IMG/VR virus record: IMGVR_UViG_3300029517_000214
Location: 1 to 26,249 of that record
Direction: 5' to 3' (one strand)
Length of the DNA stretch: 26,249 bases
Source of the DNA: a virus
Taxonomy: Duplodnaviria > Heunggongvirae > Uroviricota > Caudoviricetes
The notes under the pieces are model-generated. The model had not been told where the DNA came from, ran no database searches, and saw nothing but the letters and a program-made list of their open reading frames with translations. Both the position numbers and the translations under genes were made by a program. Of the stretch, positions 2,013-24,881 are shown piece by piece. Position 1 is the first letter of the stretch; every line of letters starts with the position of its first letter.

Positions 2013-3845
2013 CTACCAAAATCGGGTATAGCCAACATCGTGATTTATATCAATGCCACTGGAGCGTGTTTCCGTAACCCGCATACCTGGTGGCATATTT
2101 ATAAATGATACCTTGATCTCACCATCAACTTTTGGCGCGGTAGCTTTATTAATCATGAAGGGATTCGGACCTGTGGCACCGGAGGCGTTGTTTGCCTGAG
2201 CCGGATCCACCTCCGGATAAGGAGTGTATCCCCGTGGCGGTATTCCCGTCCCATAAGCATCATAAGCACCCGCGCCCCACTGCGCCGAGTTAATGGCATC
2301 GACCGTGTCACCGGAACTGTCGGTAAACCATTCAATAATCGGCTTCAGCTTATCCCACATATCCTGAAACCACTTAACAACCGGTCCCCAGTTATTGATC
2401 ACCATCCCCAGCGGCGACCAGGCAAAAACCTTCTTCAGAAGTTCCCAGCCAGCCTCAAAATAAGGACTAATGGTTTCCCAGAGCTTCTTAAAATAAGGTC
2501 CGACAACATCCCAGTTAGTGATAATTAATCCCGCAGCCAGGGCTATCGCCGTCGCAATCATGCCAATCGGCGTCATCGACATGATCCTGCTGACGATACT
2601 GATGGCACTGCCCACGCCCATCAATCCCAGTTTCAGAATCGCAAGACCGGCAGCAAGCCCGACGACGCCGCGAATAACCCGGGGATTTTCATCCGCAAAC
2701 TTCGTGAATTTTTCCCCTAACTCCCCCAGCCATTGCGTGATATTTTTGACGTCACCAGAAAATGCGCCGCCAATAGCCGCAAGGCCGTTAGTTGCGGTCC
2801 CCGTCATTGCCTCCCACAGGTTGGACAGCGTACCAAGCTGGGCCTGAACACGTTTATTCAGGCTGGCCTGTTTATTCATCTTCTGCTGGATCTGATCGTA
2901 ACCATCCTTTCCTTTATCGATCAGAGCATTGACCACCTGAAGGGTTTCGGCATCATCACCAAATATTGCCTTAAGTACACCGGTTCGCTTAACGTCGGTC
3001 AGTTTTCGCAGCTTTGCCAGTTGCCTGAACATGTTATCAAGACCGCCAAAACTCCCTTTGCCGTCAGTAAAATCGAGCTGTACCCCGAGTTTCTGGCGGG
3101 CCATAACTTTATTAACGTCCCTGATTTTCTTAACGCTTAATCCGGACTGGATAACTTTTCGCAGGGCATTACCTGCCGACTCCCCGTTCATCCCCATCTG
3201 ATCCATCATGACGCTGATGGGGGCAAGGCTCTGTGCAGCCTGAAGACCGTCCTTGTTCACCATCTTCAGAACAGAACTGGTTTTAGTGAAGAAGGACAAC
3301 ATGTTGGTATCGTCAACGCCCAGATAAAACGCCTTCTGGATAGTGTCGAACAGCCCCATCATGTCTTCTGACGCCGTTCCGGTAGCATCCTGCATCTTTG
3401 CAGCAAACTCAGCAGCCGCTTCCGGTGTTTTTTTCAGTTGTACCGCAAGATAAGCTGTCGCTTTACCCACACCGCCAAGAATATTTTCTGCCGGGATCCC
3501 CTGACGCACCAGCATCTGCATCATGTTCTGGAAATCAGCCGTTGTACCGGGTAGCTGGTTACCCAGGCCAATAGCCAGTTTATTGATGTCCTGAAAGCTC
3601 TTTCCGACCTCGCCGTTCGCATCCATCATGGCGACTTTCAGCCCGGTGGCGGCGTTTTCCTGATCGGCATAAGATTTCAGGGAAAGCGTCAGACCCGCTG
3701 CCAGTCCGCCACCAAGCGCCAGCCCACCCTGTGATGCTTCTTCCGCCTGGCGTTTAAATCCCCGGATTTTCTTTTGCATTTTCGACAGCGCGGGAGAAAG
3801 TCTGTCGACACCGGTGATCAACGCCTTAAGCTCAAATTCAGCCAT
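2013..3845 (-). CDS. Tail tape measure protein
   Basis: 610-aa ORF with Ala/Gly-rich helical N-terminus, internal hydrophobic segment and Trp-rich C-terminal repeats (WDVVGPYFKKLWETISPYFEAGWELLKKVFAW). Lies directly after the frameshifted chaperone pair. Confidence 0.8.
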   Translation of the reverse strand: MAEFELKALITGVDRLSPALSKMQKKIRGFKRQAEEASQGGLALGGGLAAGLTLSLKSYADQENAATGLKVAMMDANGEVGKSFQDINKLAIGLGNQLPGTTADFQNMMQMLVRQGIPAENILGGVGKATAYLAVQLKKTPEAAAEFAAKMQDATGTASEDMMGLFDTIQKAFYLGVDDTNMLSFFTKTSSVLKMVNKDGLQAAQSLAPISVMMDQMGMNGESAGNALRKVIQSGLSVKKIRDVNKVMARQKLGVQLDFTDGKGSFGGLDNMFRQLAKLRKLTDVKRTGVLKAIFGDDAETLQVVNALIDKGKDGYDQIQQKMNKQASLNKRVQAQLGTLSNLWEAMTGTATNGLAAIGGAFSGDVKNITQWLGELGEKFTKFADENPRVIRGVVGLAAGLAILKLGLMGVGSAISIVSRIMSMTPIGMIATAIALAAGLIITNWDVVGPYFKKLWETISPYFEAGWELLKKVFAWSPLGMVINNWGPVVKWFQDMWDKLKPIIEWFTDSSGDTVDAINSAQWGAGAYDAYGTGIPPRGYTPYPEVDPAQANNASGATGPNPFMINKATAPKVDGEIKVSFINMPPGMRVTETRSSGIDINHDVGYTRFW

Positions 3846-4612: not shown

Positions 4613-6108
4613 TATGCAGACTCCTCTGAATACTGAAGACGGAACTGGTTAACCACGGCAAAGACACGCAACTGGTTAACATAGTCAGGCGGGAACAGCG
4701 TGTTCAGGCGGTTCGGATCGCTGGCATCACGCTCCACAACCAGGTACTGCTTAAACAGTTCGTAGTTTTCCACGATCCCCGCACGCTCAAGCTGACGGTA
4801 GGTTGCCAGCAGTTCCCCTTTGATCACCGCCGGGGTGACAATCGCCTGACCGGGACCAAAGCGGGTACCGTCACTGGCAAGCTTGTGACGCCCGTACTTA
4901 CTGGTAATGACGGATTTCAGTTTGCGCAGTACATACGCGCTGGTATGCAGTGTCTCACTGTCGAGGTAGCTGTTATCCGCAACCCCGTAAGCGTTTTTCC
5001 TGTACGTGGTGACATCACGCTGAATGCGCAGTACCCCGCTTTCGACATACGCCGTTGCCACGCCATGAGACAGCAGGGTCTGTTGTTCGGTCATCGTGAA
5101 CCGTTTCCCCTTCGGCGCAGGCAGCATACCCACCAGCTCACCGGTCTGCGTGGGACGTGCCGGATCGTTGCGAATAAACACCGCTGCGCGGGCGGTACGG
5201 CTTGCCGCCAGTTCGTCGGCAGGCGTCTGGGTCTCTTTTTCGTACCCCGCCAGGGTAATGTGCTGCTGGTTAAACTGGTCACCTGCGGTCACCAGTTCTG
5301 ACAGCGTGCCGATCTTTGCCGTATACACATGACCATACAGCTGACGCGCATAGCTCCAGCGACCGCTGGTATCGTTCATCTCGGTCACCAGCGTGTTAAC
5401 GGAGGCCGTGTCGTTGAACGGCAGGCCGATATAATCAAACGGCTCATCCGCCATTGCAGCCACCGCGCCGGTGAGAACCGGAGCACCCGTTCCGGCGGTA
5501 CCCGTCGCCACGGCAATCTGTACGCCCGCTGGCAGCACTTCGCCCCCACCAAAGCCGTAGTAATTGAGGCTGACAGGAATTTCATTCCCGCAAAGCCCCT
5601 TATGACGCGCGGTCAGTGTGACCACACCTGCCGAAGATGAAGCCGTAAACGGCAGGGCCGGAACGGCATTGATGGCATCTTTGATACTGCTGGCAATCGT
5701 CGTGACGTTATCGCCGTTGGTCACCGGAGCCTGCACGCGGGTACGTCCCACATAGACATTCACCGTGCCGCTTTCGGTTGCTTCCCCGGTCACCGTCAGC
5801 GTAACCGTTGCCGCCGCGCCTGTGGCTTCCGGAACGGCAATCACATACAGCTCACCAAACGGGTCGGTCTGGCGATAAGCCTCGACCATACGCGCCAGCT
5901 GACTTCCCGCACCACAAATCTGGCGTGCATAGTCTGCCGACGGCATCAGCACCAGACTGTTGGCAACAATCTCTGCACCGTTACTGGCATGACCAATCAG
6001 CAGCGATGCTCCGCTGTCCTGTGCAGTATTCGCCGCCTGGTTATCCATTTCCGCATAAAACAGCGGAACCAGCGTATTCGACGGAATGGTGTTAAAGCTT
6101 ATCGTCAT
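4612..6108 (-). CDS. Tail sheath protein (Mu gpL-like)
   Basis: 498-aa ORF immediately upstream of tube/chaperone/tape measure; length and context typical of a contractile sheath. Confidence 0.75.
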   Translation of the reverse strand: MTISFNTIPSNTLVPLFYAEMDNQAANTAQDSGASLLIGHASNGAEIVANSLVLMPSADYARQICGAGSQLARMVEAYRQTDPFGELYVIAVPEATGAAATVTLTVTGEATESGTVNVYVGRTRVQAPVTNGDNVTTIASSIKDAINAVPALPFTASSSAGVVTLTARHKGLCGNEIPVSLNYYGFGGGEVLPAGVQIAVATGTAGTGAPVLTGAVAAMADEPFDYIGLPFNDTASVNTLVTEMNDTSGRWSYARQLYGHVYTAKIGTLSELVTAGDQFNQQHITLAGYEKETQTPADELAASRTARAAVFIRNDPARPTQTGELVGMLPAPKGKRFTMTEQQTLLSHGVATAYVESGVLRIQRDVTTYRKNAYGVADNSYLDSETLHTSAYVLRKLKSVITSKYGRHKLASDGTRFGPGQAIVTPAVIKGELLATYRQLERAGIVENYELFKQYLVVERDASDPNRLNTLFPPDYVNQLRVFAVVNQFRLQYSEESA

Positions 6109-6252
6109 CGGTGTTCACCTTTTTATTCACGCGCCGGATATCACCAGCTGCTTCACGGCGCAGCCAGTAGTTGTTCTCGTCAACATTTCGCCCTTCGGCG
6201 GGCAAAAGGTCGCTGCGGGCAGGGTCAGGCACTGACCGCCCTTTAACAGGTT
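6082..6252 (-). CDS. Small hypothetical protein (below the ORF-track cutoff)
   Basis: Hand-translated 56 codons from ATG at 6252 (MFVKPVKGRSVPDPARSDLL...KKVNTDDDKL); fills the gap between 6271 and the sheath gene and overlaps the sheath start by 27 nt. Confidence 0.25.
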
Positions 6253-6270
6253 TCACAAACATGAGGATCC

Positions 6271-6831
6271 TCAGGAAGGAATGGTTATTTCTGTGTGATG
6301 TTCGATATCGCCGTCAGGCCCGTTACCGGGATCGAGATAATCAACATCAATCGCCAGCGTTTGCAGTTCATCCAGACTGTTCAGATCATCCTGCTGGCGG
6401 GTATCGTCTTCAGTCAGCTCGCTGATGACCGAAAAATCGAACTGATAAATCAGCTCATGACGATTCAGATCCAGCAGCGTGCCGCCGTCATAGGTAATCG
6501 GGTTACCGCACGCCTCCGGGTTCCAGCCCAGCAGAGCCTTAAAGAGCATCTGCCGGACATCGTCCACCACATCATACGAGGCAAACTGACCGCGCTCATC
6601 ACGCCCGTTACTCAGTATGACAATCACGGAGAAACCCTCTTTCAGCGCCTGCCAGTAGTCGGTCTGGCTTTTGTTTTCTCCCGGAGAATCATCACCCGGT
6701 ACAACATATGCCGCCGGGAGTTTCAGCTTTCCGACCTCCGGCAGATTTTTGAACTGGGCCGCACCTGCAACCCGGTTTTCAAAATACGGACAGCGGGCAC
6801 GCAGTGCAGCAATAACAGGCGTCAGTTTCAT
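6271..6831 (-). CDS. Putative tail completion/terminator-type protein (head-tail junction module)
   Basis: 186-aa ORF, ATGA-type coupling with the upstream gene at 6828..6831; call is by position between head-tail joining genes and the sheath. Confidence 0.4.
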   Translation of the reverse strand: MKLTPVIAALRARCPYFENRVAGAAQFKNLPEVGKLKLPAAYVVPGDDSPGENKSQTDYWQALKEGFSVIVILSNGRDERGQFASYDVVDDVRQMLFKALLGWNPEACGNPITYDGGTLLDLNRHELIYQFDFSVISELTEDDTRQQDDLNSLDELQTLAIDVDYLDPGNGPDGDIEHHTEITIPS

Positions 6832-7334
6832 CTGTGTCGTCGCTCCGGCTTCAGTGATTTACGCAATTCCCGCGCCAGAAAATAGCGTGTCCAGCTGCGG
6901 TTCTTTTCAAGCGTTTCCATCATGAAGTTATTACGTGGAGCCAGTCGCCAGCCGCTGCCACCGGATGCACCACGATGATGGCTGCGACGACGCTTTGCCC
7001 CTCGCCTCACTCCATAGAACAAAAAAGCCGGATAAAAATCACCAGTGATACGGCGGTTTCCCTCTCCATTACGCTGGTTAGGGGCTATACGTGCCATAAA
7101 ACCAGGGCGATGTTTACTGGCTCTGGGTACCATGTAACCAATCGAACGAGCCAGGCGTCCGGTCTGATAACCGGGGTTTTCACCCGGTGCCGACCGCGCA
7201 CGGCGCATCACCAGCCGACGGGCATCACGCATATGACGCTGACCAATCGTGACAAACGCCCGCCGGACACGGGCGCGGTTAAAGCGCATCTCCGTGGGCT
7301 GCTGAAAATCAACGTGCAAAAAGGAAGTCGCCAT
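6828..7334 (-). CDS. HK97 gp10-like tail component protein
   Basis: Arg-rich basic protein in the head-tail joining block. Start uncertain; an internal Met (MRFNRARV) near 7289 would remove the overlap with the upstream gene. Confidence 0.45.
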   Translation of the reverse strand: MATSFLHVDFQQPTEMRFNRARVRRAFVTIGQRHMRDARRLVMRRARSAPGENPGYQTGRLARSIGYMVPRASKHRPGFMARIAPNQRNGEGNRRITGDFYPAFLFYGVRRGAKRRRSHHRGASGGSGWRLAPRNNFMMETLEKNRSWTRYFLARELRKSLKPERRHR

Positions 7335-7719
7335 TGCTGCCTCCGTGACTCTGCCTACATTCGCCCAGCTCCGTACACTCCAGCAGCAGAAAGCGCCGCG
7401 CTCCGTTCAGATCGCGCTGACGTTTCACCCGGTACACACTGTCACCGCAGACCACCTCATAATCAGCAGTGATCCCCCGGCGGTAACGAATGGTGATGTA
7501 ATGGGTGATGGCGTCTCCGGTCTGCGCGGTTTCCTGCCAGGTGGTGGCACTGGTCTGGATAACCTTCGCCCATGTACTGAACGCAACCGGGTATTGAGGC
7601 TCCACGCCAAAGTTATCTGCGGGCATATCCACCCGCTGGCGGATCAGGACGCGTTTATTCAGTTCACCGGGGTCCGGCAGAATGTAGGTTGCGCTGGTCT
7701 GTGCCTGGCTAATTTTCAT
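7309..7719 (-). CDS. Head closure / head-tail joining protein
   Basis: 136-aa ORF with 4-nt overlap to the gp6-like connector gene; position typical of HK97-type head completion genes. Confidence 0.5.
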   Translation of the reverse strand: MKISQAQTSATYILPDPGELNKRVLIRQRVDMPADNFGVEPQYPVAFSTWAKVIQTSATTWQETAQTGDAITHYITIRYRRGITADYEVVCGDSVYRVKRQRDLNGARRFLLLECTELGECRQSHGGSNGDFLFAR

Positions 7720-8045
7720 TGCGGAAAGTACCTGTACGGGCTGACAAGCCAGCCAAAACTCTGCGGCATGTCGAGTTTCTCCACTTCCGTAACCGACGAG
7801 CGGTTTTCGTAAAAGTGGCTGATAAGCATCAGCATCCCAAGACGAATATCATCCGGCAGGTGCAGCCCGTCCGGATCGCTGTCCGGAATGGATTCATCCG
7901 GTGCATAGAGCTTCCGGTTCAGATACGTTTCCGTCCGCTTTTGCGCCGCACAGGCCAGCAGTTGCAGATGGCGGTCATCGGCATCGAAATCCTCATCCAG
8001 CCGGAGTTGGGCTTTAATCTCTTCCAGTGTCAGAAGCATTCTCAT
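7716..8045 (-). CDS. gp6-like head-tail connector protein
   Basis: N-terminus LTLEEIKAQLRLDEDFDADDRHLQLLACAAQKRTETYLNRKL matches the characteristic gp6-like connector pattern. Confidence 0.65.
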   Translation of the reverse strand: MRMLLTLEEIKAQLRLDEDFDADDRHLQLLACAAQKRTETYLNRKLYAPDESIPDSDPDGLHLPDDIRLGMLMLISHFYENRSSVTEVEKLDMPQSFGWLVSPYRYFPQ

Positions 8046-8241
8046 CCCTCTTTACTGGCCGTGGCTTTTTCTCTTTTGCCGCTTTACTGCTTTTTGCACT
8101 GGTTCCGCGCTCTGCTAACCCGGCCTGAAGTGCAATCTCCTGCACCCGGGCAGGAAGCGCCCCGTCGTCATACTCACCGGCCCTAATAACCTCAACACGC
8201 ATACCGTCCGGTGACCATTTAAGATCTTGTTTCAGGATCAT
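8014..8241 (-). CDS. Small hypothetical head-module protein
   Basis: 75-aa ORF between major capsid and connector genes with a purine-rich RBS-like stretch upstream of ATG 8241. Confidence 0.35.
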   Translation of the reverse strand: MILKQDLKWSPDGMRVEVIRAGEYDDGALPARVQEIALQAGLAERGTSAKSSKAAKEKKPRPVKRDENASDTGRD

Positions 8242-8264
8242 GATTCTTCACCCTTCAGAACAGG

Positions 8265-8282
8265 GGGCGCGGAACCGCGCCC
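8265..8282 (-). other. GC-rich hairpin just downstream of the major capsid gene
   Basis: GGGCGCGG / CCGCGCCC perfect 8-bp inverted repeat separated by AA, 9 nt after the capsid stop; no U-tract follows. Confidence 0.35.
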
Positions 8283-8290
8283 ATGAGCGA

Positions 8291-9496
8291 TTACTTCTCT
8301 GCAATCTTCAGCAGTTTGATGGCCTGCGAATCGACCAGCATTCCGCCGGTGCGCTTGGTGGTATAAAAACCGACAAACGGTTTATTGGTGTACGGGTCAC
8401 GCAGAATGCGGGTGCCGATACGGTCAACGATGGTGTAACCCCGTTTGAAGTTACCAAATGCGATGGCTTTCGCATCCGCAGCAATATCCGGCATCTGTTC
8501 GTTTTCAGCAATACCGTACCCCAGCAGAGAAGAAGGCTGCCCCAGTTCCAGCCCCGGACGCCACAGATAGTTACCCTCGTTGTCTTTCAACAGACGAATG
8601 GCAAACAGGCTGTTGTTGTTCATCATGAACTTCGCGCCAGTGCGGTGTGCCTTACGCAGCGTGTAAATCAGTTTGATAATGGCGTCTGCGGTCACCGCAG
8701 TCGCTTCGCCGGATACAATATGCTGAAGTTTGCCGAACGCCCGGACCTTATCGGTTTCATCAGTGGATTCATACGCCAGGAACCCTTTCGGCTTCTTGGT
8801 GCCATCGCCTGAGGTAAAGGCAATTTCTTCCTGTTCGGCAAATTCGGTTGCCAGCTCGCTGTTGATCCATGCTTCCACGTTGAAAAAGGCATCATCCAGC
8901 ATTTTCTGGGTGGCCTGCGGGTTACCGTAGATTTCCCCCATGAAAGGTTCAATCAGGCCCAGTTTTGAGGTGGCAGTCTGGGAGCGCGCGTCAGTCTCGC
9001 CAACCCATCCGGAAGCCGTGCCGCCCAGATTCACCAGTTTTTTGTAGTCGGAACCACCAATGGTGATCACCGTGGCTTCCTGACGCATCACCACTTCATC
9101 TTTCAGCAAGGTCAGAATGTTGCGATCCAGCGCTTCCGGCACGGCATAGCCGCCGTCTTCATCGGTGCCCACCTGTAATGCCTTGCGCTCCAGATCGCGC
9201 AGACCATCTTCACGGCCTTTACGCAGGAAGCCCACAAACGCTTCTTTATGCTCGGTGGTCAGTTTATTTTGCGCTCCACCAGCCGGACGTTTCAGCTCAA
9301 GCAGCTCTTTTTCAAGGTCGCTTTTGAGATTTTCCAGCTCGCTGAGTTTCCCGTTCAGGGTTTCCACCTGCCCGGCAAGCTTGCCTTTTTCCTGCTCAAT
9401 CGCATCCACGCGCTTGTCGTTCTTTGCTTTGAAGTCGTCAAACTTCTGCTGCAGCTCCTGCGCGACCTGTTCGACATCTTTAATATCAACCGCCAT
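8291..9496 (-). CDS. Major capsid protein, HK97 family
   Basis: 401 aa with coiled-coil N-terminal delta-like region followed by a capsid-fold region; AGGAG RBS 7 nt upstream; directly follows the prohead protease gene. Confidence 0.85.
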   Translation of the reverse strand: MAVDIKDVEQVAQELQQKFDDFKAKNDKRVDAIEQEKGKLAGQVETLNGKLSELENLKSDLEKELLELKRPAGGAQNKLTTEHKEAFVGFLRKGREDGLRDLERKALQVGTDEDGGYAVPEALDRNILTLLKDEVVMRQEATVITIGGSDYKKLVNLGGTASGWVGETDARSQTATSKLGLIEPFMGEIYGNPQATQKMLDDAFFNVEAWINSELATEFAEQEEIAFTSGDGTKKPKGFLAYESTDETDKVRAFGKLQHIVSGEATAVTADAIIKLIYTLRKAHRTGAKFMMNNNSLFAIRLLKDNEGNYLWRPGLELGQPSSLLGYGIAENEQMPDIAADAKAIAFGNFKRGYTIVDRIGTRILRDPYTNKPFVGFYTTKRTGGMLVDSQAIKLLKIAEK

Positions 9497-13924: not shown

Positions 13925-14275
13925 TCACCTGAACCGCTCACGCGCGGTCTTCACTGCGTGACACGACCAGCACAGACTCTCAAGGTTGCTGTCTTCATCA
14001 GTGCCGCCGTGAGCCTTCGCCTTGAGGTGGTCCACGCAGGACGCTTGCTTCACAACTCCCTGCCGAAGATGGTTCTGACATAACCCTTTGTCGCGCTTTA
14101 GTATCCGCTCCCGGATGACTTCCCACTTTGTTCCATATCCGCGCTGCTGCCGTGATTGACCTGGCTTGTAGGATTTCCAGCCCTCACCTTTATGATTTTC
14201 GCAGTAGCCTGACGGATCTGTAGTGGTAGAACGGCAGCCGCGAACACGGCAGGCTTTTGGGATTCGTGGCGGCAT
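13925..14275 (-). CDS. HNH endonuclease (terminase-associated)
   Basis: Cys-rich N-terminus and C-terminal CVDHLKAKAHGGTDEDSNLESLCWSCHAVKT HNH motif; located just upstream of terS as in HK97-like packaging modules. Confidence 0.8.
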   Translation of the reverse strand: MPPRIPKACRVRGCRSTTTDPSGYCENHKGEGWKSYKPGQSRQQRGYGTKWEVIRERILKRDKGLCQNHLRQGVVKQASCVDHLKAKAHGGTDEDSNLESLCWSCHAVKTARERFR

Positions 14276-14373
14276 ATGGAAAACTCCGGATAGAAATTAT
14301 GATAGAAACCATGTTATTTAATAGCGTTTCAATCCGTTAAGTAACAATGGTTATGCTCGTAAAGGACGCCCTG

Positions 14374-14763
14374 ATGACAAATAACTACATGAATGATTTC
14401 CTCAAATACTCACAGCCATATGTTCCAAAGGACTACAATCTTGCAAATGAATTTCATAGACGCCTTATATGCTGGATAAATGATTTTCACCGTGAACTTG
14501 AAGAAGAGTATGAGGTAGGAGGACAACTAGCTAGCTTTGGTAAAAACATTGAATTTCATTTCACAGACATAAGCTACTGGAATCCATCATTAATTTCTTT
14601 CATTGGTACTCTGGAGGATGGCAGTCCTGTAGAACTTGTTCAGCATGTATCTCAAATAAATGTCCTGCTAATCCGAAAAAAACGCTTATGCTTAGAGACC
14701 CCTAAAAGACCGATTGGGTTTGCTGATTGGGGTGAATACGACTCCTTTAAAGGAGATAATTGA
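14374..14763 (+). CDS. Hypothetical protein, opposite-strand moron at the bor position (possibly YbcV/YdfO-like)
   Basis: AT-rich plus-strand ORF between the spanin genes and the packaging module. Start assigned to the Met with an AAGGA RBS 8 nt upstream (MTNNYMNDF...); the longest ORF starts at 14347. Family guess is from memory of position and size only. Confidence 0.55.
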   Translation: MTNNYMNDFLKYSQPYVPKDYNLANEFHRRLICWINDFHRELEEEYEVGGQLASFGKNIEFHFTDISYWNPSLISFIGTLEDGSPVELVQHVSQINVLLIRKKRLCLETPKRPIGFADWGEYDSFKGDN

Positions 14764-14770
14764 TAACTTT

Positions 14771-14795
14771 ATTGCGGGCGATAATTGCCCGCAAT
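14771..14795. terminator. Hairpin between convergent genes (possible bidirectional terminator)
   Basis: ATTGCGGGC / GCCCGCAAT 9-bp stem with 7-nt loop, between the stop of 14374..14763 (+) and the stop of 14806..15024 (-); flanking U-tract is weak. Confidence 0.4.
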
Positions 14796-14805
14796 CTCGT
14801 TTGCC

Positions 14806-15024
14806 TCATAACTGGCTAATACAGTTGCGCTGTACTGCTTTGTTATGTGCCAGAATATCCCGCTTCGTAAGCTTATCCAGCACTTCAATGTCCTGACCTG
14901 TGAGGTAGATGATTCTTACCCAGTCACAGGCCGTGTCCGTTACTTCAGGTTTTGCGGGTAAAGTTTTCGCGCAACTCACGGTCAACATCGTCATCAGGTA
15001 GATGATTAACAGTCTGCTGTACAT
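14806..15024 (-). CDS. Putative outer-membrane spanin lipoprotein (o-spanin)
   Basis: 72 aa with signal peptide and lipobox-like LTVSC plus two further cysteines; overlaps the upstream gene by 80 nt in another frame. Confidence 0.45.
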   Translation of the reverse strand: MYSRLLIIYLMTMLTVSCAKTLPAKPEVTDTACDWVRIIYLTGQDIEVLDKLTKRDILAHNKAVQRNCISQL

Positions 15025-15221: not shown

Positions 15222-15836
15222 TCATACCAGTGCGGCTTTTGCTTTGGCGTAACGTTCACGGCGGTCTTTAATGCCATTCTGTCCGCCGTTAATAATCTGC
15301 GTTACACGTTCCACGTCACCCGAATACATCAAGCAACCGCGTAACGTGAAGTACCACGCCGCCGAACGGGCCGCATGTCGCTCCTGCGTTAGCAATTCTG
15401 GTGTATTGACAAGGTCAAGTTTCAGCGCCGCACCACATTTGGTGTAGTTCTCACGGCCAGTAATTTGAAGCAGGCCACGACCGCGATATTTCCAGCCGTC
15501 ACCCTGGCTGTTATTCCCCATGCGGTCACCGTAAACCAGATTGGCTATTTGCGGCTGGTGAGCGACCTGTTTACCATCGACACGCCCCAGCATTTCGCAC
15601 TGGTACGGCGTCAGACGCTTACCAAAGGTTTTCTTCAGCCCTTCAACCGAGTAGTTAAAACTCTCTGCCAGCGAAGTAAATCCTGCAGACTCATGCCCGA
15701 CTTGTGCAATGAACATGGCCTGATCATTAACTGCTGTAATACCAAACTCTTTCATTGCCGCATCAATGTGCGGAAACCAGCGTGCAGAAACATCGGCGCT
15801 GATACCAGCCGCCTGCTGAAATTGTGATTGGTTCAT
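15222..15836 (-). CDS. Endolysin, probably glycoside hydrolase family 19 (chitinase-like)
   Basis: 204 aa directly downstream of two membrane-protein genes; FIAQVGHESAGF resembles the GH19 catalytic-region motif. Family assignment is from memory. Confidence 0.7.
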   Translation of the reverse strand: MNQSQFQQAAGISADVSARWFPHIDAAMKEFGITAVNDQAMFIAQVGHESAGFTSLAESFNYSVEGLKKTFGKRLTPYQCEMLGRVDGKQVAHQPQIANLVYGDRMGNNSQGDGWKYRGRGLLQITGRENYTKCGAALKLDLVNTPELLTQERHAARSAAWYFTLRGCLMYSGDVERVTQIINGGQNGIKDRRERYAKAKAALV

Positions 15837-16117
15837 TAGTGCCTCAGATGGTCAACCAGACGTGCCACATTGCCTCTGACGGCGACCAGCACGGACAGGA
15901 AAATAATGTTGGCCACGATAGTGGCCCACGATGAATAAGGGTAGATACCGCACAGATACGCCAGCGGTACGGCGCTATAAATGACCGTAAGCAGCCACGC
16001 TAAGCGAGATATCCACGGTCGATGTCTGGAGTCGCCACGACGATAAAACATCAGAGTAATAACAACACAAGCACATAACAGCGCATTTATAGTTGCTGTC
16101 GGGTCATTTAGCTCCAC
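15836..16117 (-). CDS. Holin-like small membrane protein (holin or antiholin)
   Basis: 93 aa with about three predicted TM helices, immediately upstream of the endolysin gene. Confidence 0.5.
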   Translation of the reverse strand: MELNDPTATINALLCACVVITLMFYRRGDSRHRPWISRLAWLLTVIYSAVPLAYLCGIYPYSSWATIVANIIFLSVLVAVRGNVARLVDHLRH

Positions 16118-16490
16118 CTGAACCTCCCCGGCGCGTTATGAGCGCCACCAGCGAGCCGATATCCTGATTATTCAGGAACGTCAGGATTTTAACGGCTAAA
16201 GCAGAGACGATTACGGCACCAATAGCATCCAGAGGTTTATCACTGTATCCGGTCAAGTTCGCCAGCTTGGAGCCAACCAACCCAGAGCAAAGGATCCCGG
16301 CAATATATGACACGATAAAATATGCTAGTCGGCGCGATGCACTCAGATCTGCTGCTGTTGCTATGTAGAATACAGCCCCTGCAAATGCGCCAAATACAAC
16401 GCCGTAATCAGTTCCGGTCAGCAGTCCATAAATACTAGCGCCCGTTAGGGCTCCACCAGCTAACCCTGTGCCGGAAATCGGATCGGACAT
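16104..16490 (-). CDS. Putative holin
   Basis: Gly/Ala-rich hydrophobic helices with a charged C-terminus (RRGGSGGAK); start taken at ATG 16490 with GAGGTGG RBS rather than the longer ORF start at 16556. Confidence 0.5.
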   Translation of the reverse strand: MSDPISGTGLAGGALTGASIYGLLTGTDYGVVFGAFAGAVFYIATAADLSASRRLAYFIVSYIAGILCSGLVGSKLANLTGYSDKPLDAIGAVIVSALAVKILTFLNNQDIGSLVALITRRGGSGGAK

Positions 16491-16598
16491 TAGCCACCTC
16501 TTATTGCAGTGAGTCCTCTCAGAAATAGAAATGAGAGGAATAAAAAAGGCCACCATTTGGCAGCCATAGAATTGATGTAATTATAACTAATTCATTAA

Positions 16599-17405
16599 CT
16601 ATTTCTTAATGATGCTATTTAACATTTCTAATGCAAAAAGCAACATGGAGCTAATAAAATACAATATAACCGCACTGGCAATCGCTCCAATTATAGCCTG
16701 GACACTCCAGTGAAAGTAATTTTTACCATTAATAACAAACTTAACACTAGGAAACAAAAAGTCGATAAGCTTAATTATTAATGGAATAGCAAAGCTCCAT
16801 AAGTTCGAAAACAAAATAAAGATACAAATAAATGATAAAGCAAATGCACCATCGATTGATAGTTTTGGCGCCAGTTTTGAGGCTGTCCATAAGCTAAGCA
16901 AAAAGCCAACTGTCACACCTGAAATCTGGATACTTAACATAGTCCAAGCTGTTCTAAAAAATCTAAATTTATTTTTGCACTTGTTAAGTAAATCCTGAAT
17001 CGTAATCCATAACGAGTCAACCCACTCATTATCTTCCGATGCTACAATCATTGTGCTGCTATTTGAATTCCTCTCATCAATTCGTAGCTCCATCCAAGAT
17101 CCATTCATCCTGTTAGACTGTCGACTTTGATAAGTTTCAATAGTAAAAATTATTTGATCAATCCTAGTGGCCTGTCTAAAGTATTTCACAAGCTCACCGA
17201 TAGAATCAACTTTATACCCCTTACCATCGAACAAAATAAAAAAAACACATTGAGCACAAACTTCCCTACTTTCCTTTTGAGCTTGCTCATTCATTTTAAC
17301 GCAGCGTTCGACAATTGCCGTGCTTAAGCTAATCAAGCTATCTTCATTTATAGAAACACCTGAAATATTCTTGCTTCTGTAAAAATATGACACTTTCGAT
17401 TCCAC
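16599..17405 (-). CDS. Hypothetical membrane protein: ~165-aa soluble N-terminal domain plus ~3 C-terminal TM helices
   Basis: 268-aa ORF in a strongly AT-rich island between Q/tR' and the holin; I recognise no family. Confidence 0.6.
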   Translation of the reverse strand: MESKVSYFYRSKNISGVSINEDSLISLSTAIVERCVKMNEQAQKESREVCAQCVFFILFDGKGYKVDSIGELVKYFRQATRIDQIIFTIETYQSRQSNRMNGSWMELRIDERNSNSSTMIVASEDNEWVDSLWITIQDLLNKCKNKFRFFRTAWTMLSIQISGVTVGFLLSLWTASKLAPKLSIDGAFALSFICIFILFSNLWSFAIPLIIKLIDFLFPSVKFVINGKNYFHWSVQAIIGAIASAVILYFISSMLLFALEMLNSIIKK

Positions 17406-17602
17406 TCCGCACCAGTCTCGATTTAGCGCAGGTTAACATAACCACTTCATTGGTAGAAGAAAAGAACTCTTCTTGTCAGAAAGCTACTGTGATATCCCTA
17501 AACCTGCAGATGATACAGAACAAAATTTAAGCATCAATTGTAGGCGATTTTAAATTCACTTTACAGTTTAGGCTGCCAATTGGCAGCCGATTGAAGCAGA
17601 AA

Positions 17603-17872
17603 TCAATGAGTGCTCATCGATGAATTTTTTTCAGCGCCAATCTCACTCAAAAAAGCAAAACCTTTTGACGTTATCTCATTAGCAATCAATCCACCTTCGG
17701 CAGATTTGCTTCGTATAACATCGATAAAACCTATATCAGCAAGATCTGAAATAGCAAAGTTAACCTCTTTTGCTGAGAGATGAGGTAATGATGCAGCCTG
17801 AATTCTAGAATCCTTTGGCTGCAATTCATTCACTCGACGTAGTATTTCAAGATGGATAGAGGTCAGTTTCAT
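17603..17872 (-). CDS. Small hypothetical protein, possible winged-helix DNA-binding fold
   Basis: 89-aa ORF in the same AT-rich island, same strand and upstream of the membrane-protein gene; helix pattern HLEILRRVNEL...EVNFAISDLADIGFI suggests a wHTH. Confidence 0.5.
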   Translation of the reverse strand: MKLTSIHLEILRRVNELQPKDSRIQAASLPHLSAKEVNFAISDLADIGFIDVIRSKSAEGGLIANEITSKGFAFLSEIGAEKNSSMSTH

Positions 17873-17940
17873 AATGTTCTCCTGTTTTTAATGTTGTTTT
17901 ACAGAAAACATTATAACACATTGATTTTGATGTAGATTGA

Positions 17941-17980
17941 ATAGAAAAAAACCATAAAAAAACCTCGCAATAGCGAGGTC
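17941..17980 (-). terminator. Candidate tR' terminator of the late leader transcript
   Basis: Minus strand ACCTCGC-TATT-GCGAGGT hairpin (plus 17963..17980) followed by TTTTTTTATGGTTTTTTTC, about 100 nt after the Q stop codon. Confidence 0.5.
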
Positions 17981-18086
17981 GTAAAAATTGTTCAACGATA
18001 GATACACAAGCCCCATCGTTGAGAAAATCTTATCCATATTTTTTGAGAAATACAAGTATTATGTCGTTATCTTCGGCGAAAATCGC

Positions 18087-18839
18087 TTATCTCGTCACCC
18101 TTCTCAATTGTGCTTCAGCGTAAGCTTCCTCCTGCCAGCACTTTGTAACCAGTTTATCAATGACATCTGCATATCCTTTGTACCACTGATAATCCGTCAG
18201 GTCTGGTACCAGCTTCTGGACATGAAGCCGCGCCAGTGTGGTTGGTAAACGGCTAAACCGGTTTCCACTGCAACGCCCACAAATCTTATAAACAGGCGTG
18301 CCATGAAGCCGGGTTCTTTTTTCATCCAGGACAATACCTTTACCCTTACACCCTCTGCACGCGGTGCTGACTTCTCCCTTACCATGGCAATGCTGACATA
18401 GTTCCTTCACCCACTCTTCCTTGATAACAGATTCCCCGCTTCTGGAGTGTTTCACCACTTCGCGCAATACATTATGAAATCCAGTACCAGCACAATGCTC
18501 ACAGCGAGCCTTACTTGCCGCAGACCTGGAATAATCAGCAAAGGCAAAATTCACAAGGTAAGGGATGATCTGTAACCGGGTTTCTTCACTCAATTTGTTC
18601 AATGTCGGGTTATCCAGTGCCATCGCGTAATTGAGCAGACCTTCAATCGCAAACTGAGGATCCTGAACACCAACTTTTGCCAGGAATAAGGCAAACCCAA
18701 GCGGTGCTTTCGACTGCACCATCCCCTGCGCAGCCATCACATCCGTAATCGTTAAACCACCTGAGCCTGTCGCCGGTGCGTCATCGCTCAATTTTGGAGA
18801 TTTTGGGGAGTAATATTTTGGTAAGGCTTCAAGGTTCAT
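18087..18839 (-). CDS. Late-gene antitermination protein Q
   Basis: Cys-rich zinc-binding segments (CEHCAGTG, CQHCHGKGE, CRGCKGKG, CGRCSG). Start at MNLEALPKYY with GGAGAA RBS, which avoids overlap with the upstream gene. Positioned upstream of the lysis genes. Confidence 0.75.
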   Translation of the reverse strand: MNLEALPKYYSPKSPKLSDDAPATGSGGLTITDVMAAQGMVQSKAPLGFALFLAKVGVQDPQFAIEGLLNYAMALDNPTLNKLSEETRLQIIPYLVNFAFADYSRSAASKARCEHCAGTGFHNVLREVVKHSRSGESVIKEEWVKELCQHCHGKGEVSTACRGCKGKGIVLDEKRTRLHGTPVYKICGRCSGNRFSRLPTTLARLHVQKLVPDLTDYQWYKGYADVIDKLVTKCWQEEAYAEAQLRRVTR

Positions 18840-18852
18840 GCTCGTTCTCCAC

Positions 18853-19838
18853 TTACGCCAGCACGCCAATTGCCAGCGCACGATCGATAAAACGAAATAT
18901 CAGCTCCAACTGGGAGCCATACTTTTCTTCAAATGCCACGGTATCCGCATGCAGATCGTCGTGATGCTTTCTGCACAAAGGCAACACAAAGAGGTCATGC
19001 GCTTTTGTACCCATTCCCCCCTGACCGTCGCCTATCAGGTGGTGGGGATCATCAGCAAGCTTTCCACAACATGCACACGGCTGTGTCTTAACCCAGCGCG
19101 TGTACTTTTCATTAGCCCAGCGGCGACGTTTTGGGCGTAACATAAAAGACTCCGGCGACTCCGGATCCACTTTCAGCGCCAGCACCTTTTTCGCCTTATC
19201 CTGGATGATGCTGGTGGCAGGAACCGAAGGCACAAGGTCACTTTCCCGGGTGACAGACGGCACAACAGGCTTCGGTAATCTCAGTGCCTTACGGGCTGCA
19301 CTTTCCGGTAAGGCATCCGCCAGGTCATTACGAACCAGCCACCAGCACAGTTCCGGCATTGTCACAACGTGACTATCATCAAAACCGAGATCCCGACGCA
19401 CAACAGACAATACCCAGCGGGCACAGTTATCCGTTGCCATTGATTCCAGCCGTTCCGTGAACTGATCGCGCAACTGGTTATCGCAGTGCCAGCACAGACG
19501 GATTGCGCCCGGCGCGTGTCGCATTGTGGTCATGTTCTCGCTGTGCCAGTCGGANNNNNNNNNNNNNNNNNNNNNNNNNAGCTTTCAAGACATTCCACCC
19601 CACCAGCACGACGAATCACTGCCTCATTACGGAACACGGCCCGAACGACAGGATCATCCGCCAGCGGTTGTGATGCCGCGGGAACGGCACCACTGGCGAA
19701 AGATGAATAATGCTCCGGCTCAGGCTCCAGCAGTACACGCCCCTGCATAAACAGGGGCATCAGCTCTGAACCTGGTCTGAACAATACGATCCCCATACGC
19801 GGGGCAATTTCAGGGGTCAGTAGTGCTCTCACGGTCAC
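18853..19838 (-). CDS. DUF968-like (YdfU-like) protein, interrupted by an assembly gap
   Basis: Two ORF pieces (19530..19838 and 18853..19533) flank the N-run. The C-terminal part has a Cys/His-rich region (QPCACCGKLADDPHHL...CRKHHDDLH). Position directly upstream of Q matches ydfU next to quuQ in Qin. True length and frame across the gap are unknown. Confidence 0.5.
19556..19579. other. Assembly gap (24 N)
   Basis: Run of n characters in the sequence. Confidence 0.99.
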
Positions 19839-23406: not shown

Positions 23407-23754
23407 GTGGAAGAAGAAATCTTCACTCGTGAAGAGGCTGCGTCGTATCTGAAGGTAGACAAAGGCACTATCACGCAGTGGATACGAAGTGGACGACTTC
23501 AAGCCGCAAAGATAAATCCAGATAAACCTAAAAGCCCATATCGCATTTGCAAGTCAGACTGCATTGCGGCGCTTAAGTCTGTGAGACACAATGGCGCGGT
23601 GAATGCGGTTGATGTGCAGGAGGTTAAAGCATGTCAATCAAACTGCGCGGTGGCACATGGCACTGCGATTTCGTCGCGCCAGATGGATCAAGAGTTAGAC
23701 GCTCTCTTGAAACATCGGACAAGAGGCAAGCGCAAGAACTTCACGATCGTCTGA
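23407..23754 (+). CDS. xis: Excisionase-like DNA-binding protein (Xis)
   Basis: GTG start with GGAG RBS; N-terminus FTREEAASYLKVDKGTITQWIRSGRLQAAKI fits excisionase/AlpA-type HTH; immediately upstream of and overlapping int. True 3' end uncertain. Confidence 0.6.
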   Translation: MEEEIFTREEAASYLKVDKGTITQWIRSGRLQAAKINPDKPKSPYRICKSDCIAALKSVRHNGAVNAVDVQEVKACQSNCAVAHGTAISSRQMDQELDALLKHRTRGKRKNFTIV

Positions 23755-24791
23755 AAGCAGAAGCGTGGAGAGTAAAAAATCTCGGGGAATCACCGAAAAA
23801 GCTATTCAAGGAAGCCTGCATACGGTGGCTGCGTGAGAAATCGGATAAGAAGTCCATTGATGATGACAAGAGCATTATATCGTTCTGGATGTTGCACTTC
23901 AGAGAAACCATTCTCTCTGACATAACAACAGAAAAAATAATGGAGGCGGTAGACGGGATGGAAAACCGCCGCCATCGCCTGAACTGGGAGATGAGCCGGG
24001 ATAGGTGTTTGCGGCTTGGCAAGCCAGTGCCGGAGTATAAACCAAAGCTGGCAAGCAAAGGAACGAAGACGCGGCATCTGGCAATACTTCGCGCTATTCT
24101 CAATATGGCTGTTGAATGGGGATGGCTTGACAGGGCGCCCAAAATATCAACACCACGCGTTAAGAATGGACGAATCAGATGGCTTACAGAGGAGGAATCG
24201 AAGCGCCTGTTTGCAGAAATTGCTCCTCATTTCTTCCCTGTGGTCATGTTTGCAATCACGACAGGCCTTCGTCGTTCCAACGTTACAGACCTTGAGTGGT
24301 CACAGGTCGATCTGGATAAGAAAATGGCATGGATGCACCCTGATGAAACAAAAGCTGGCAATGCGATCGGAGTTCCTCTTAACGAAACCGCATGCCAGAT
24401 ATTAAGAAAACAGCAGGGGCTCCATAAGAGATGGGTATTTGTCCACACCAAACCTGCCTACCGAAGCGACGGAACAAAAACAGCAGCGGTAAGGAAGATG
24501 AGAACCGACAGCAACAAGGCATGGAAGGGAGCGTTAAAGCGGGCAGGCATTAGCAACTTCCGCTTCCATGACCTGAGGCATACCTGGGCAAGCTGGCTGG
24601 TTCAGTCCGGTGTCTCTCTTCTTGCACTTAAAGAGATGGGAGGATGGGAAACTCTCGAAATGGTTCAAAGATACGCCCACCTTTCAGCTTGGCATCTCAC
24701 CGAGCACGCGAGCAAAATCGATGCGATTATAAGTCGCAATGGCACAAATACGGCACAAGAGGAGAACGTAGTTTACTTAAATACGAGGTAA
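23631..24791 (+). CDS. int: Tyrosine-type site-specific integrase
   Basis: 386 aa with C-terminal catalytic motifs (HDLRHTWAS; LEMVQRYAHL with the catalytic Tyr); AGGAGG RBS; stop 14 nt from the tRNA 3' end. Confidence 0.9.
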   Translation: MSIKLRGGTWHCDFVAPDGSRVRRSLETSDKRQAQELHDRLKAEAWRVKNLGESPKKLFKEACIRWLREKSDKKSIDDDKSIISFWMLHFRETILSDITTEKIMEAVDGMENRRHRLNWEMSRDRCLRLGKPVPEYKPKLASKGTKTRHLAILRAILNMAVEWGWLDRAPKISTPRVKNGRIRWLTEEESKRLFAEIAPHFFPVVMFAITTGLRRSNVTDLEWSQVDLDKKMAWMHPDETKAGNAIGVPLNETACQILRKQQGLHKRWVFVHTKPAYRSDGTKTAAVRKMRTDSNKAWKGALKRAGISNFRFHDLRHTWASWLVQSGVSLLALKEMGGWETLEMVQRYAHLSAWHLTEHASKIDAIISRNGTNTAQEENVVYLNTR

Positions 24792-24805: not shown

Positions 24806-24881
24806 TGGTGCCGATAATAGGAGTCGAACCTACGACCTTCGCATTACGAATGCGCTGCTCTACCAACTGAGCTATATCGGC
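24806..24881 (-). tRNA. thrW: tRNA-Thr (anticodon CGT), thrW-type
   Basis: Hand-folded cloverleaf: acceptor GCCGATA/TATCGGC, D arm GCTC/GAGC, anticodon stem GCGCA/TGCGC with loop TTCGTAA, T arm GTAGG/CCTAT, encoded CCA. Confidence 0.9.

Follow-up and report, generated by a model that had tools for sequence, protein, structure and literature searches.

What does a pair of foreign-looking genes do in the late region of an Escherichia coli prophage, and do the two genes belong together? The question is raised by a 26,249-nucleotide stretch of viral DNA (positions 1 to 26,249 of the IMG/VR record IMGVR_UViG_3300029517_000214; hereafter, the window), which comes from an SfV-like E. coli prophage and encodes a tape-measure protein and a DNA-circulation protein. 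On its minus strand, an AT-rich island between the gene of the antiterminator Q and the lysis cassette carries a gene for an 89-amino-acid (aa) protein followed by a gene for a larger, predicted membrane protein. The Q-to-holin slot is a cargo site of lambdoid phages, occupied for instance by stx in Stx phages, and its accessory genes are known as morons, a concept that is said to come from Hendrix and colleagues. An initial annotation, made from the letters of the window, had proposed that the two genes form one system. Judged by sequence, the island is rather a stack of two independently mobile cargo units. Its larger protein is one of a widespread and unnamed family of distinctive build, encoded by a single gene that is separable from its neighbor. 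The recognition of this family and of its separability is new; it was already known that the slot holds cargo and that both genes exist in databases as hypothetical proteins (phrog_30208 and phrog_32916). Taken jointly, the structural claims, namely that there are two separate units, that the family is real and conserved, and that its membrane topology is as predicted below, are, in our judgment, very likely correct.

The limits of the island could be placed by composition and by comparison with relatives. The insert (16527-17957; 1,431 bp, with minus-strand genes, between the terminator tR' and the holin gene) has a GC content of 35.1%, the lowest of any 1.4-kb stretch of the window, versus a mean of 52.0% (standard deviation, 3.8) outside it and 51% for the whole window. 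Its two genes lie at 34.6% and 38.1%, and the intergenic stretches at 26 to 40%. The relatives SKA5 and 118970_sal3 have the Q gene and the lysis cassette in common with the window, at 88 to 95% DNA identity, and hold about 320 bp with an unrelated 85-aa open reading frame (ORF) in place of the insert. Homology to them breaks at 16526 and picks up again at 17958, indicating that the cargo starts directly after the tR' terminator and stops some 36 bp short of the holin start codon; the edges of the insert thereby coincide with tR' and the holin ribosome-binding site. These results confirm the AT-rich two-ORF island between Q/tR' and the lysis cassette that the initial annotation had described, and the base composition and the insert-free relatives also bear out its view of the island as compositionally foreign cargo in a classic slot.

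The larger gene lies at 16599-17405 (minus strand). Its ORF is indeed 268 aa long, as first annotated, when read from the GTG at 17405; the most likely start is the GTG at 17393, which gives a protein of 264 aa, since the RefSeq start and the alignment of distant homologues both fall there. A ratio of nonsynonymous to synonymous substitution (dN/dS) of 0.15 to 0.21 versus homologues shows that this is a real gene under purifying selection. The protein matches phrog_30208 over the entire profile (positions 1-231 of 231; E = 8.5e-162), a family annotated as of unknown function, and all 65 of the diverse homologues that we compared match it too. The PHROG profile (231 aa) is truncated at the N terminus and lacks the first ~37 residues that are conserved in full-length homologues. 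An exhaustive profile search of 1.84 billion cluster representatives retrieved 230 proteins at E ≤ 1e-3, of which 127 reached E ≤ 1e-30; a word-indexed search had found just 9 clusters. The members are nearly all 250 to 270 aa long and align from end to end.

Beyond phrog_30208, the larger protein matched nothing in Pfam, NCBIfam, PADLOC, or the PDB sequences, and no match recurred among the 65 diverse members, so that the earlier view of it as a protein of no recognized family holds. The longer members, which have N-terminal extensions, offered no informative domain fusion. Literature searches returned no paper on the protein accessions, the PHROG identifiers, or DUF2513, and none on Q-holin cargo or defense that describes these proteins. 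Copies of the gene were found in IMG/VR contigs of prophage origin, and the 90%-identity cluster of the protein also includes Salmonella and Shigella members. As a separate observation, one very long protein (P0086; 2,105 aa) gave 24 separate matches to positions ~136-180 of the family profile, that is, to the basic stretch and the first transmembrane (TM) helix. Its sole other matches were to DUF3331 and, weakly, to T2SSF, and it may represent a repeat artifact or a repeated membrane-anchor module.

Is the larger protein, then, one half of a system? According to the pair model, the 89-aa protein, as a winged-helix regulator, controls or neutralizes the membrane protein in a regulator-effector or toxin-antitoxin-like arrangement. 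The two genes are adjacent on the same strand, and in complete E. coli genomes they are found in the same 41 of 5,426, always together, neither occurring alone, and at 99% identity or more. This co-occurrence carries no weight with regard to functional linkage, because such identity marks a single, recent cassette lineage. Outside that lineage the association dissolves. Homologues of the large protein with 52 to 79% identity hold the same slot, directly upstream of the holin, in other enterobacterial phages, where they follow three Q families (PF03589, PF06323, and PF06530) and precede two lysis cassettes. Their upstream neighbor is usually an N6_N4 DNA methyltransferase (345-357 aa) or else an unrelated protein of 65-73 aa, and never the 89-aa protein, whose gene is missing beside every more distant homologue as well. 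The small protein of 65-73 aa, which has a faint TrmB-like similarity and stands after Q and upstream of the homologue in four loci (L007, L008, L010, and L018), could be counted in favor of a pair.

The DNA itself is divided between the genes. Homology to the methyltransferase-carrying phages extends from the holin through the large gene and ends at about 17442, a breakpoint that separates the two genes. Conversely, Klebsiella phages carry homologues of the 89-aa protein without the large gene, and no partner family recurs among 122 proteins encoded around the large gene in 16 loci. Each gene occurs elsewhere without the other, and, together with the breakpoint, this leads us to conclude that each is its own mobile unit and that the two have been stacked here; on the same grounds, the proposal of a single system is not supported, and we consider the pair model quite improbable. 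The initial annotation had itself stated that a lack of conservation of the pair outside this prophage would speak against its proposal. Conservation of the pair across independent lineages was not found, the pair being confined to the one lineage with at least 99% identity; the large protein on its own is conserved far more broadly.

The signals around the genes can be read in terms of two units. Upstream of the island, a putative late promoter, pR' (18027-18055, minus strand; TTGTAT, a 17-nucleotide spacer, and TAAGAT), was recognized by reading the sequence; the consensus promoter scan did not call it, and its equivalent in SKA5 (TTGCAT-17-TAGGAT) has the same arrangement. The terminator scan placed a tR'-type intrinsic terminator at 17953-17980 (minus strand; hairpin at 17961-17980, GACCTCGC-TATT-GCGAGGTT, then a T-run), which is the last element common to the window and its insert-free relatives ahead of the cargo. 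Within the insert, a pattern search detected an extended -10 element, TGTTATAAT, at 17910-17918 (minus strand), 37 nucleotides upstream of the 89-aa start codon. It is a candidate cargo promoter, and the Klebsiella homologue of the gene is preceded by an equivalent extended -10 element, TGGTAAAAT. On the 3' side of the 89-aa gene lies a perfect hairpin, GGCTGCC-AATT-GGCAGCC (17570-17588, minus strand), which has no T-run and is followed by a spacer of about 165 bp up to the large gene. We found no convincing promoter directly upstream of the large gene in a sequence scan of the region.

The large gene is followed directly, before the holin gene, by an intrinsic terminator (16542-16565, minus strand; stem at 16548-16565, GGCTGCCAAATGGTGGCC, then TTTTTT). 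This terminator is kept in three other loci (L003, L014, and L043). In L007, the 52%-identical homologue has a different T-run hairpin on its 3' side. Besides the window, two other phage backgrounds show a terminator after the large gene. Across the region as a whole, there is some excess of terminator-like sites (7 found versus 2.7 expected). A repeat search revealed that the hairpin at 17570-17588 and the terminator stem at 16547-16565 are 84% identical, with the T-run only at the second; this hairpin pair could be a junction scar from the stacking of two units. The first unit would comprise the 89-aa gene together with the promoter-like extended -10 element ahead of it and the hairpin after it, and the second would comprise the 264-aa gene with its own intrinsic terminator. 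The promoter-like element lies before the first gene, a terminator with a T-run lies after the second, and none lies between them; a joint transcript of the two genes is therefore plausible in this phage, which speaks for the pair model.

With its insertion between tR' and the holin, its absence from close relatives, its foreign composition, its own terminator, and its promoter-like element, the island resembles the lambdoid morons, and differs from them in that its cargo is neither a toxin nor another known gene.

The first of the two cargo genes (17603-17872, minus strand) has a strong AGGAG ribosome-binding site and encodes a protein that matches phrog_32916 (E = 3e-61) and has a small family of its own. 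Its putative winged helix-turn-helix character, already suggested in the initial annotation, gained convergent matches, all of them below thresholds: DUF2513 (PF10711) at 21.8 bits and E = 2.4e-4, under the Pfam gathering threshold of 29.6 bits, and, more weakly, HTH_45 (E = 0.026), Lrs14 (E = 0.06), and the winged-helix domain of Pol III RPC39 (E = 1.1). The Klebsiella homologue matches DUF2513 independently and over the same region (17.5 bits; E = 5.4e-3), although these scores, like the others, stay under the curated cutoffs, and DUF2513 is itself functionally uncharacterized. We therefore regard the protein as probably a small winged-helix DNA-binding protein, an assignment drawn from these subthreshold matches. 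The family is too shallow for a useful alignment, and AlphaFold2 run from the single sequence gave an all-helical model with a predicted local distance difference test (pLDDT) score of 54, too poor to judge the fold.

For the 89-aa protein, relatives could be detected only in the Klebsiella phages ST405-OXA48phi1.2 and vB_VIPKPNMC05, as proteins of 79 aa (37 to 39% identity). Their genes occupy the same Q-to-holin slot, with their own terminator and without a homologue of the large gene. The stem-loop of that terminator (AACCTCGCTTCGGCGGGGTTTTTT; L047, 3735-3800; L048, 3170-3235) is that of the tR' hairpin of SKA5 (L045, about 1948-1975), the T-run differing in one base, G for the last T. In view of this shared stem-loop, the small gene of the Klebsiella phages may lie between the late promoter and tR', where its transcription would be constitutive. 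Separately, the other small protein mentioned above, which comes first after Q in phages with large-protein homologues (65-73 aa; L007, 2096-2296; L008, 2188-2409; L010, 49-246; L018, 582-782), has a winged-helix-like pattern; its sole matches, to TrmB and DnaD_N, are faint, and it has no detectable relation to the 89-aa protein.

The build of the larger protein is what makes its family distinctive. An AlphaFold2 model, built from an alignment of 8 sequences, contains a well-predicted N-terminal domain (residues 5-145; pLDDT, ~88 to 91) with the order β-α-β-β-α-β-β-β-α, followed by three predicted helices. The soluble domain fused to about three TM helices that had been proposed at first is thus retained as an architecture, with a domain of ~145 rather than 165 aa. 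Foldseek returned no significant match to the model in the PDB or BFVD, and the fold of the N domain has a generic TBP/AdoMetDC-like resemblance only. Over the 65 members, the mean number of lysine plus arginine residues is 3.55 before the first TM helix, 1.31 in loop 1, and 2.89 in loop 2. Under the positive-inside rule, these values predict a cytoplasmic N domain, three membrane passes, and a short external C terminus. The most conserved residues (264-aa numbering) are D7, D56, G59, A75, and G98 in the soluble domain and Q156, F188, S196, N197, W199, P215, and F219 in the membrane part. The latter include conserved polar motifs within the helices (Q156, S196-N197-x-W199, and P215) that would fit an oligomeric or pore-lining arrangement.

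What could such a protein do next to a holin gene? Its predicted multipass inner-membrane nature and the position of its gene, directly before the holin and on the strand of the late operon in every phage context with a visible downstream gene, might suggest a lysis accessory, that is, an antiholin or a modulator of lysis timing that works with the adjacent holins; 2 of the 65 family members also weakly match the holin family phrog_689 (E = 4e-4). However, an intrinsic terminator stands between the gene and the holin, the gene is missing from close relatives whose lysis cassette is the same, and it accompanies two unrelated holin types. The 264-aa protein itself matches no holin or antiholin family of Pfam or PHROG, and most members of the family are found in nonphage loci without lysis genes. 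A role in lysis is therefore very unlikely, in our estimate.

With the search patterns used, the locus search, which was based on the 8-sequence alignment, recovered the family in 13 of 185,579 species genomes, a sparse and patchy spread over Methylobacter, Gallionella, Thiobacillus, Methyloversatilis, Moraxellaceae, Thiomicrorhabdus, Nitrospira, and Bacteroidota. Outside phages, the family gene is solitary: no partner family recurs among the 122 neighbor proteins of the 16 loci. In Gallionella sp. UBA4121 (L021), it belongs to a row of six short same-strand genes (5386-8900) with palindromic spacers of about 75 to 110 bp, and its upstream neighbor is an "integron cassette protein" (PF21648; E = 5e-40); from its layout, this row is probably an integron cassette array. 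Elsewhere the gene directly follows AbiEi/AbiEii (L052 and L054) or stands beside GmrSD_N plus HEPN and a TumE pair (L011), SocA_Panacea (L013), a HigBA-like pair (L025), or a transposase (L012); in another case (L050), a conjugative element with TraM harbors it, and a TIR gene is close by. The pooled neighbor proteins further gave matches to PD-T4-2 and NsnA. Such accessory and defense-like contexts are suggestive of a defense role, as circumstantial evidence from genomic context.

We tentatively favor, at somewhat less than even odds, the reading that the 264-aa protein works by itself at the membrane to exclude phages or to abort infection. In this scenario, a prophage or other mobile element would express the protein, which would reside in the inner membrane with its ~145-aa α/β N domain in the cytoplasm and its three membrane helices following. 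The cytoplasmic domain would sense a signal from an infecting phage, upon which the helices would assemble or open, damage the membrane, and exclude or abort the infection. On prophage induction, Q-driven read-through would also produce the protein, in a cell about to lyse anyway. A bolder and somewhat more doubtful extension is that the protein is the founding member of a new anti-phage family whose members act on the membrane and are each encoded by a single gene. In this family, a cytoplasmic sensor domain not described before would be connected directly to a three-helix membrane effector, and the gene would have spread as a minimal unit through prophage slots, integron cassettes, and defense or toxin-antitoxin islands of Proteobacteria, Nitrospira, and Bacteroidota.

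Several results weigh against an anti-phage role or against the parts from which it is built. Neither protein of the island matched any PADLOC-DB 2.0 model at E ≤ 1, the 65 family members gave scattered single matches to PADLOC (E ≥ 0.006), and the large protein has no homology to a known defense, exclusion, holin, or toxin family. In tblastn searches, its gene was found in none of 50,697 deposited phage genomes. Some loci are plain housekeeping neighborhoods, with NusA/IF2 and Nuo-type genes (L049), chorismate lyase (L026), or FecCD (L022), and the same is true of L055. The three membrane helices (153-178, 187-217, and 233-267) were modeled at low confidence, and promoter-like matches in the region do not exceed chance (6 found versus 6.4 expected).

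An alternative is an accessory function other than defense, as a sensor or channel for small molecules or lipids, a stress factor, or a lysogenic-conversion factor that rides on mobile elements. The distribution of the family argues against it: it is sparse and patchy, it has no conserved neighborhood, and it recurs in mobile, toxin-antitoxin, or defense-type contexts, features that a selfish or defensive gene would explain better than a physiological one. We thus rate a nondefense role as rather unlikely, while taking it more seriously than a function in lysis.

Inner-membrane proteins that exclude phages or abort infections are well known from phages and prophages, including lambda RexB, P22 SieA, T4 Imm, and HK97 gp15. 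The 264-aa protein resembles them as prophage-borne inner-membrane accessory cargo that could act alone at the membrane. It differs in that it shares no similarity of sequence or fold with any of them and is alone in having a folded cytoplasmic domain of ~145 aa; moreover, RexB needs RexA, whereas the 264-aa family lacks a conserved partner. A second likeness is to the 2TM and 4TM effectors of CBASS, to Cap15, to PycTM, and to SLATT proteins, whose few membrane helices, joined to a soluble sensor or ligand-binding domain, are thought to act by membrane disruption. In those systems, the effector gene has a cyclase or another signal generator next to it, whereas the gene of the 264-aa family is found alone. 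The models for "2TM effector," PycTM, and SAVED_TM each matched 1 of the 65 family members (E = 0.006 to 0.2), which we regard as compositional noise, and no SLATT model of Pfam matched any of them.

The remainder of the prophage is organized as follows. Along the minus strand, Q is followed by the 89-aa ORF, the 268-aa ORF, a class-8 holin, a 3-TM holin, a GH19 endolysin, and Rz/Rz1. The Q gene, at 18087-18881 (minus strand; PF03589 Antiterm, E = 4.8e-53; phrog_127, E = 1e-107), forms the upstream border of the cargo slot, and the first holin gene, at 16104-16490 (minus strand; Phage_holin_8, PF16931, E = 1.5e-34), forms the downstream one. The start of this holin at 16490 (128 aa) is backed by RefSeq and by the holin profiles; from the mechanical ORF start at 16556 (150 aa), the gene would overlap the terminator hairpin. 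The 3-TM holin (holin_3_7) and the GH19 endolysin are encoded at 15836-16117 and 15222-15836, respectively, on the minus strand, and the integrase gene (23631-24791) adjoins a tRNA-Thr gene (24806-24881).

Two further AT-rich islands were noted in the window. One (1300-2100; ~33% GC) contains a minus-strand ORF of 176 aa (1391-1921) without a Pfam match, flanked by the genes of the tape-measure protein (2013-3845) and the DNA-circulation protein (1-1329), and resembles another cargo gene among the tail genes. The other (14200-14850; 37 to 40% GC) holds a DUF6173 gene (E = 4e-21; ORF 14347-14763) on the plus strand, opposite to all of its neighbors, between Rz1 and the HNH/terminase genes, and has a moron-like look. 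At 19555-19579, a run of 25 N splits a DUF968 gene into two ORFs (18853-19533 and 19530-19838); it is a single 990-bp gene in the identical RefSeq locus. In E. coli XB2 (NZ_CP162303.1), the same cassette and lysis genes persist in a decayed prophage, in which a frameshifted adenine methyltransferase gene replaces Q and the head genes are deleted beside CPS-53-like yfdP/Q/R.

The practical outcome is that the large gene deserves to be considered on its own, beyond the pair in which it was first noticed. Should it have no anti-phage function, the locus would be an ordinary pair of orphan cargo genes. With some 230 clusters and no Pfam entry, the family is such that a functional assignment would annotate a recurrent "hypothetical" gene. 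If the protein does act against phages, the known prophage-borne defenses would gain a compact system of one gene, equipped with a new sensor domain, and the slot between Q and the holin in prophages of E. coli and Salmonella, familiar chiefly from Shiga toxin, would turn out to exchange defense cargo too.

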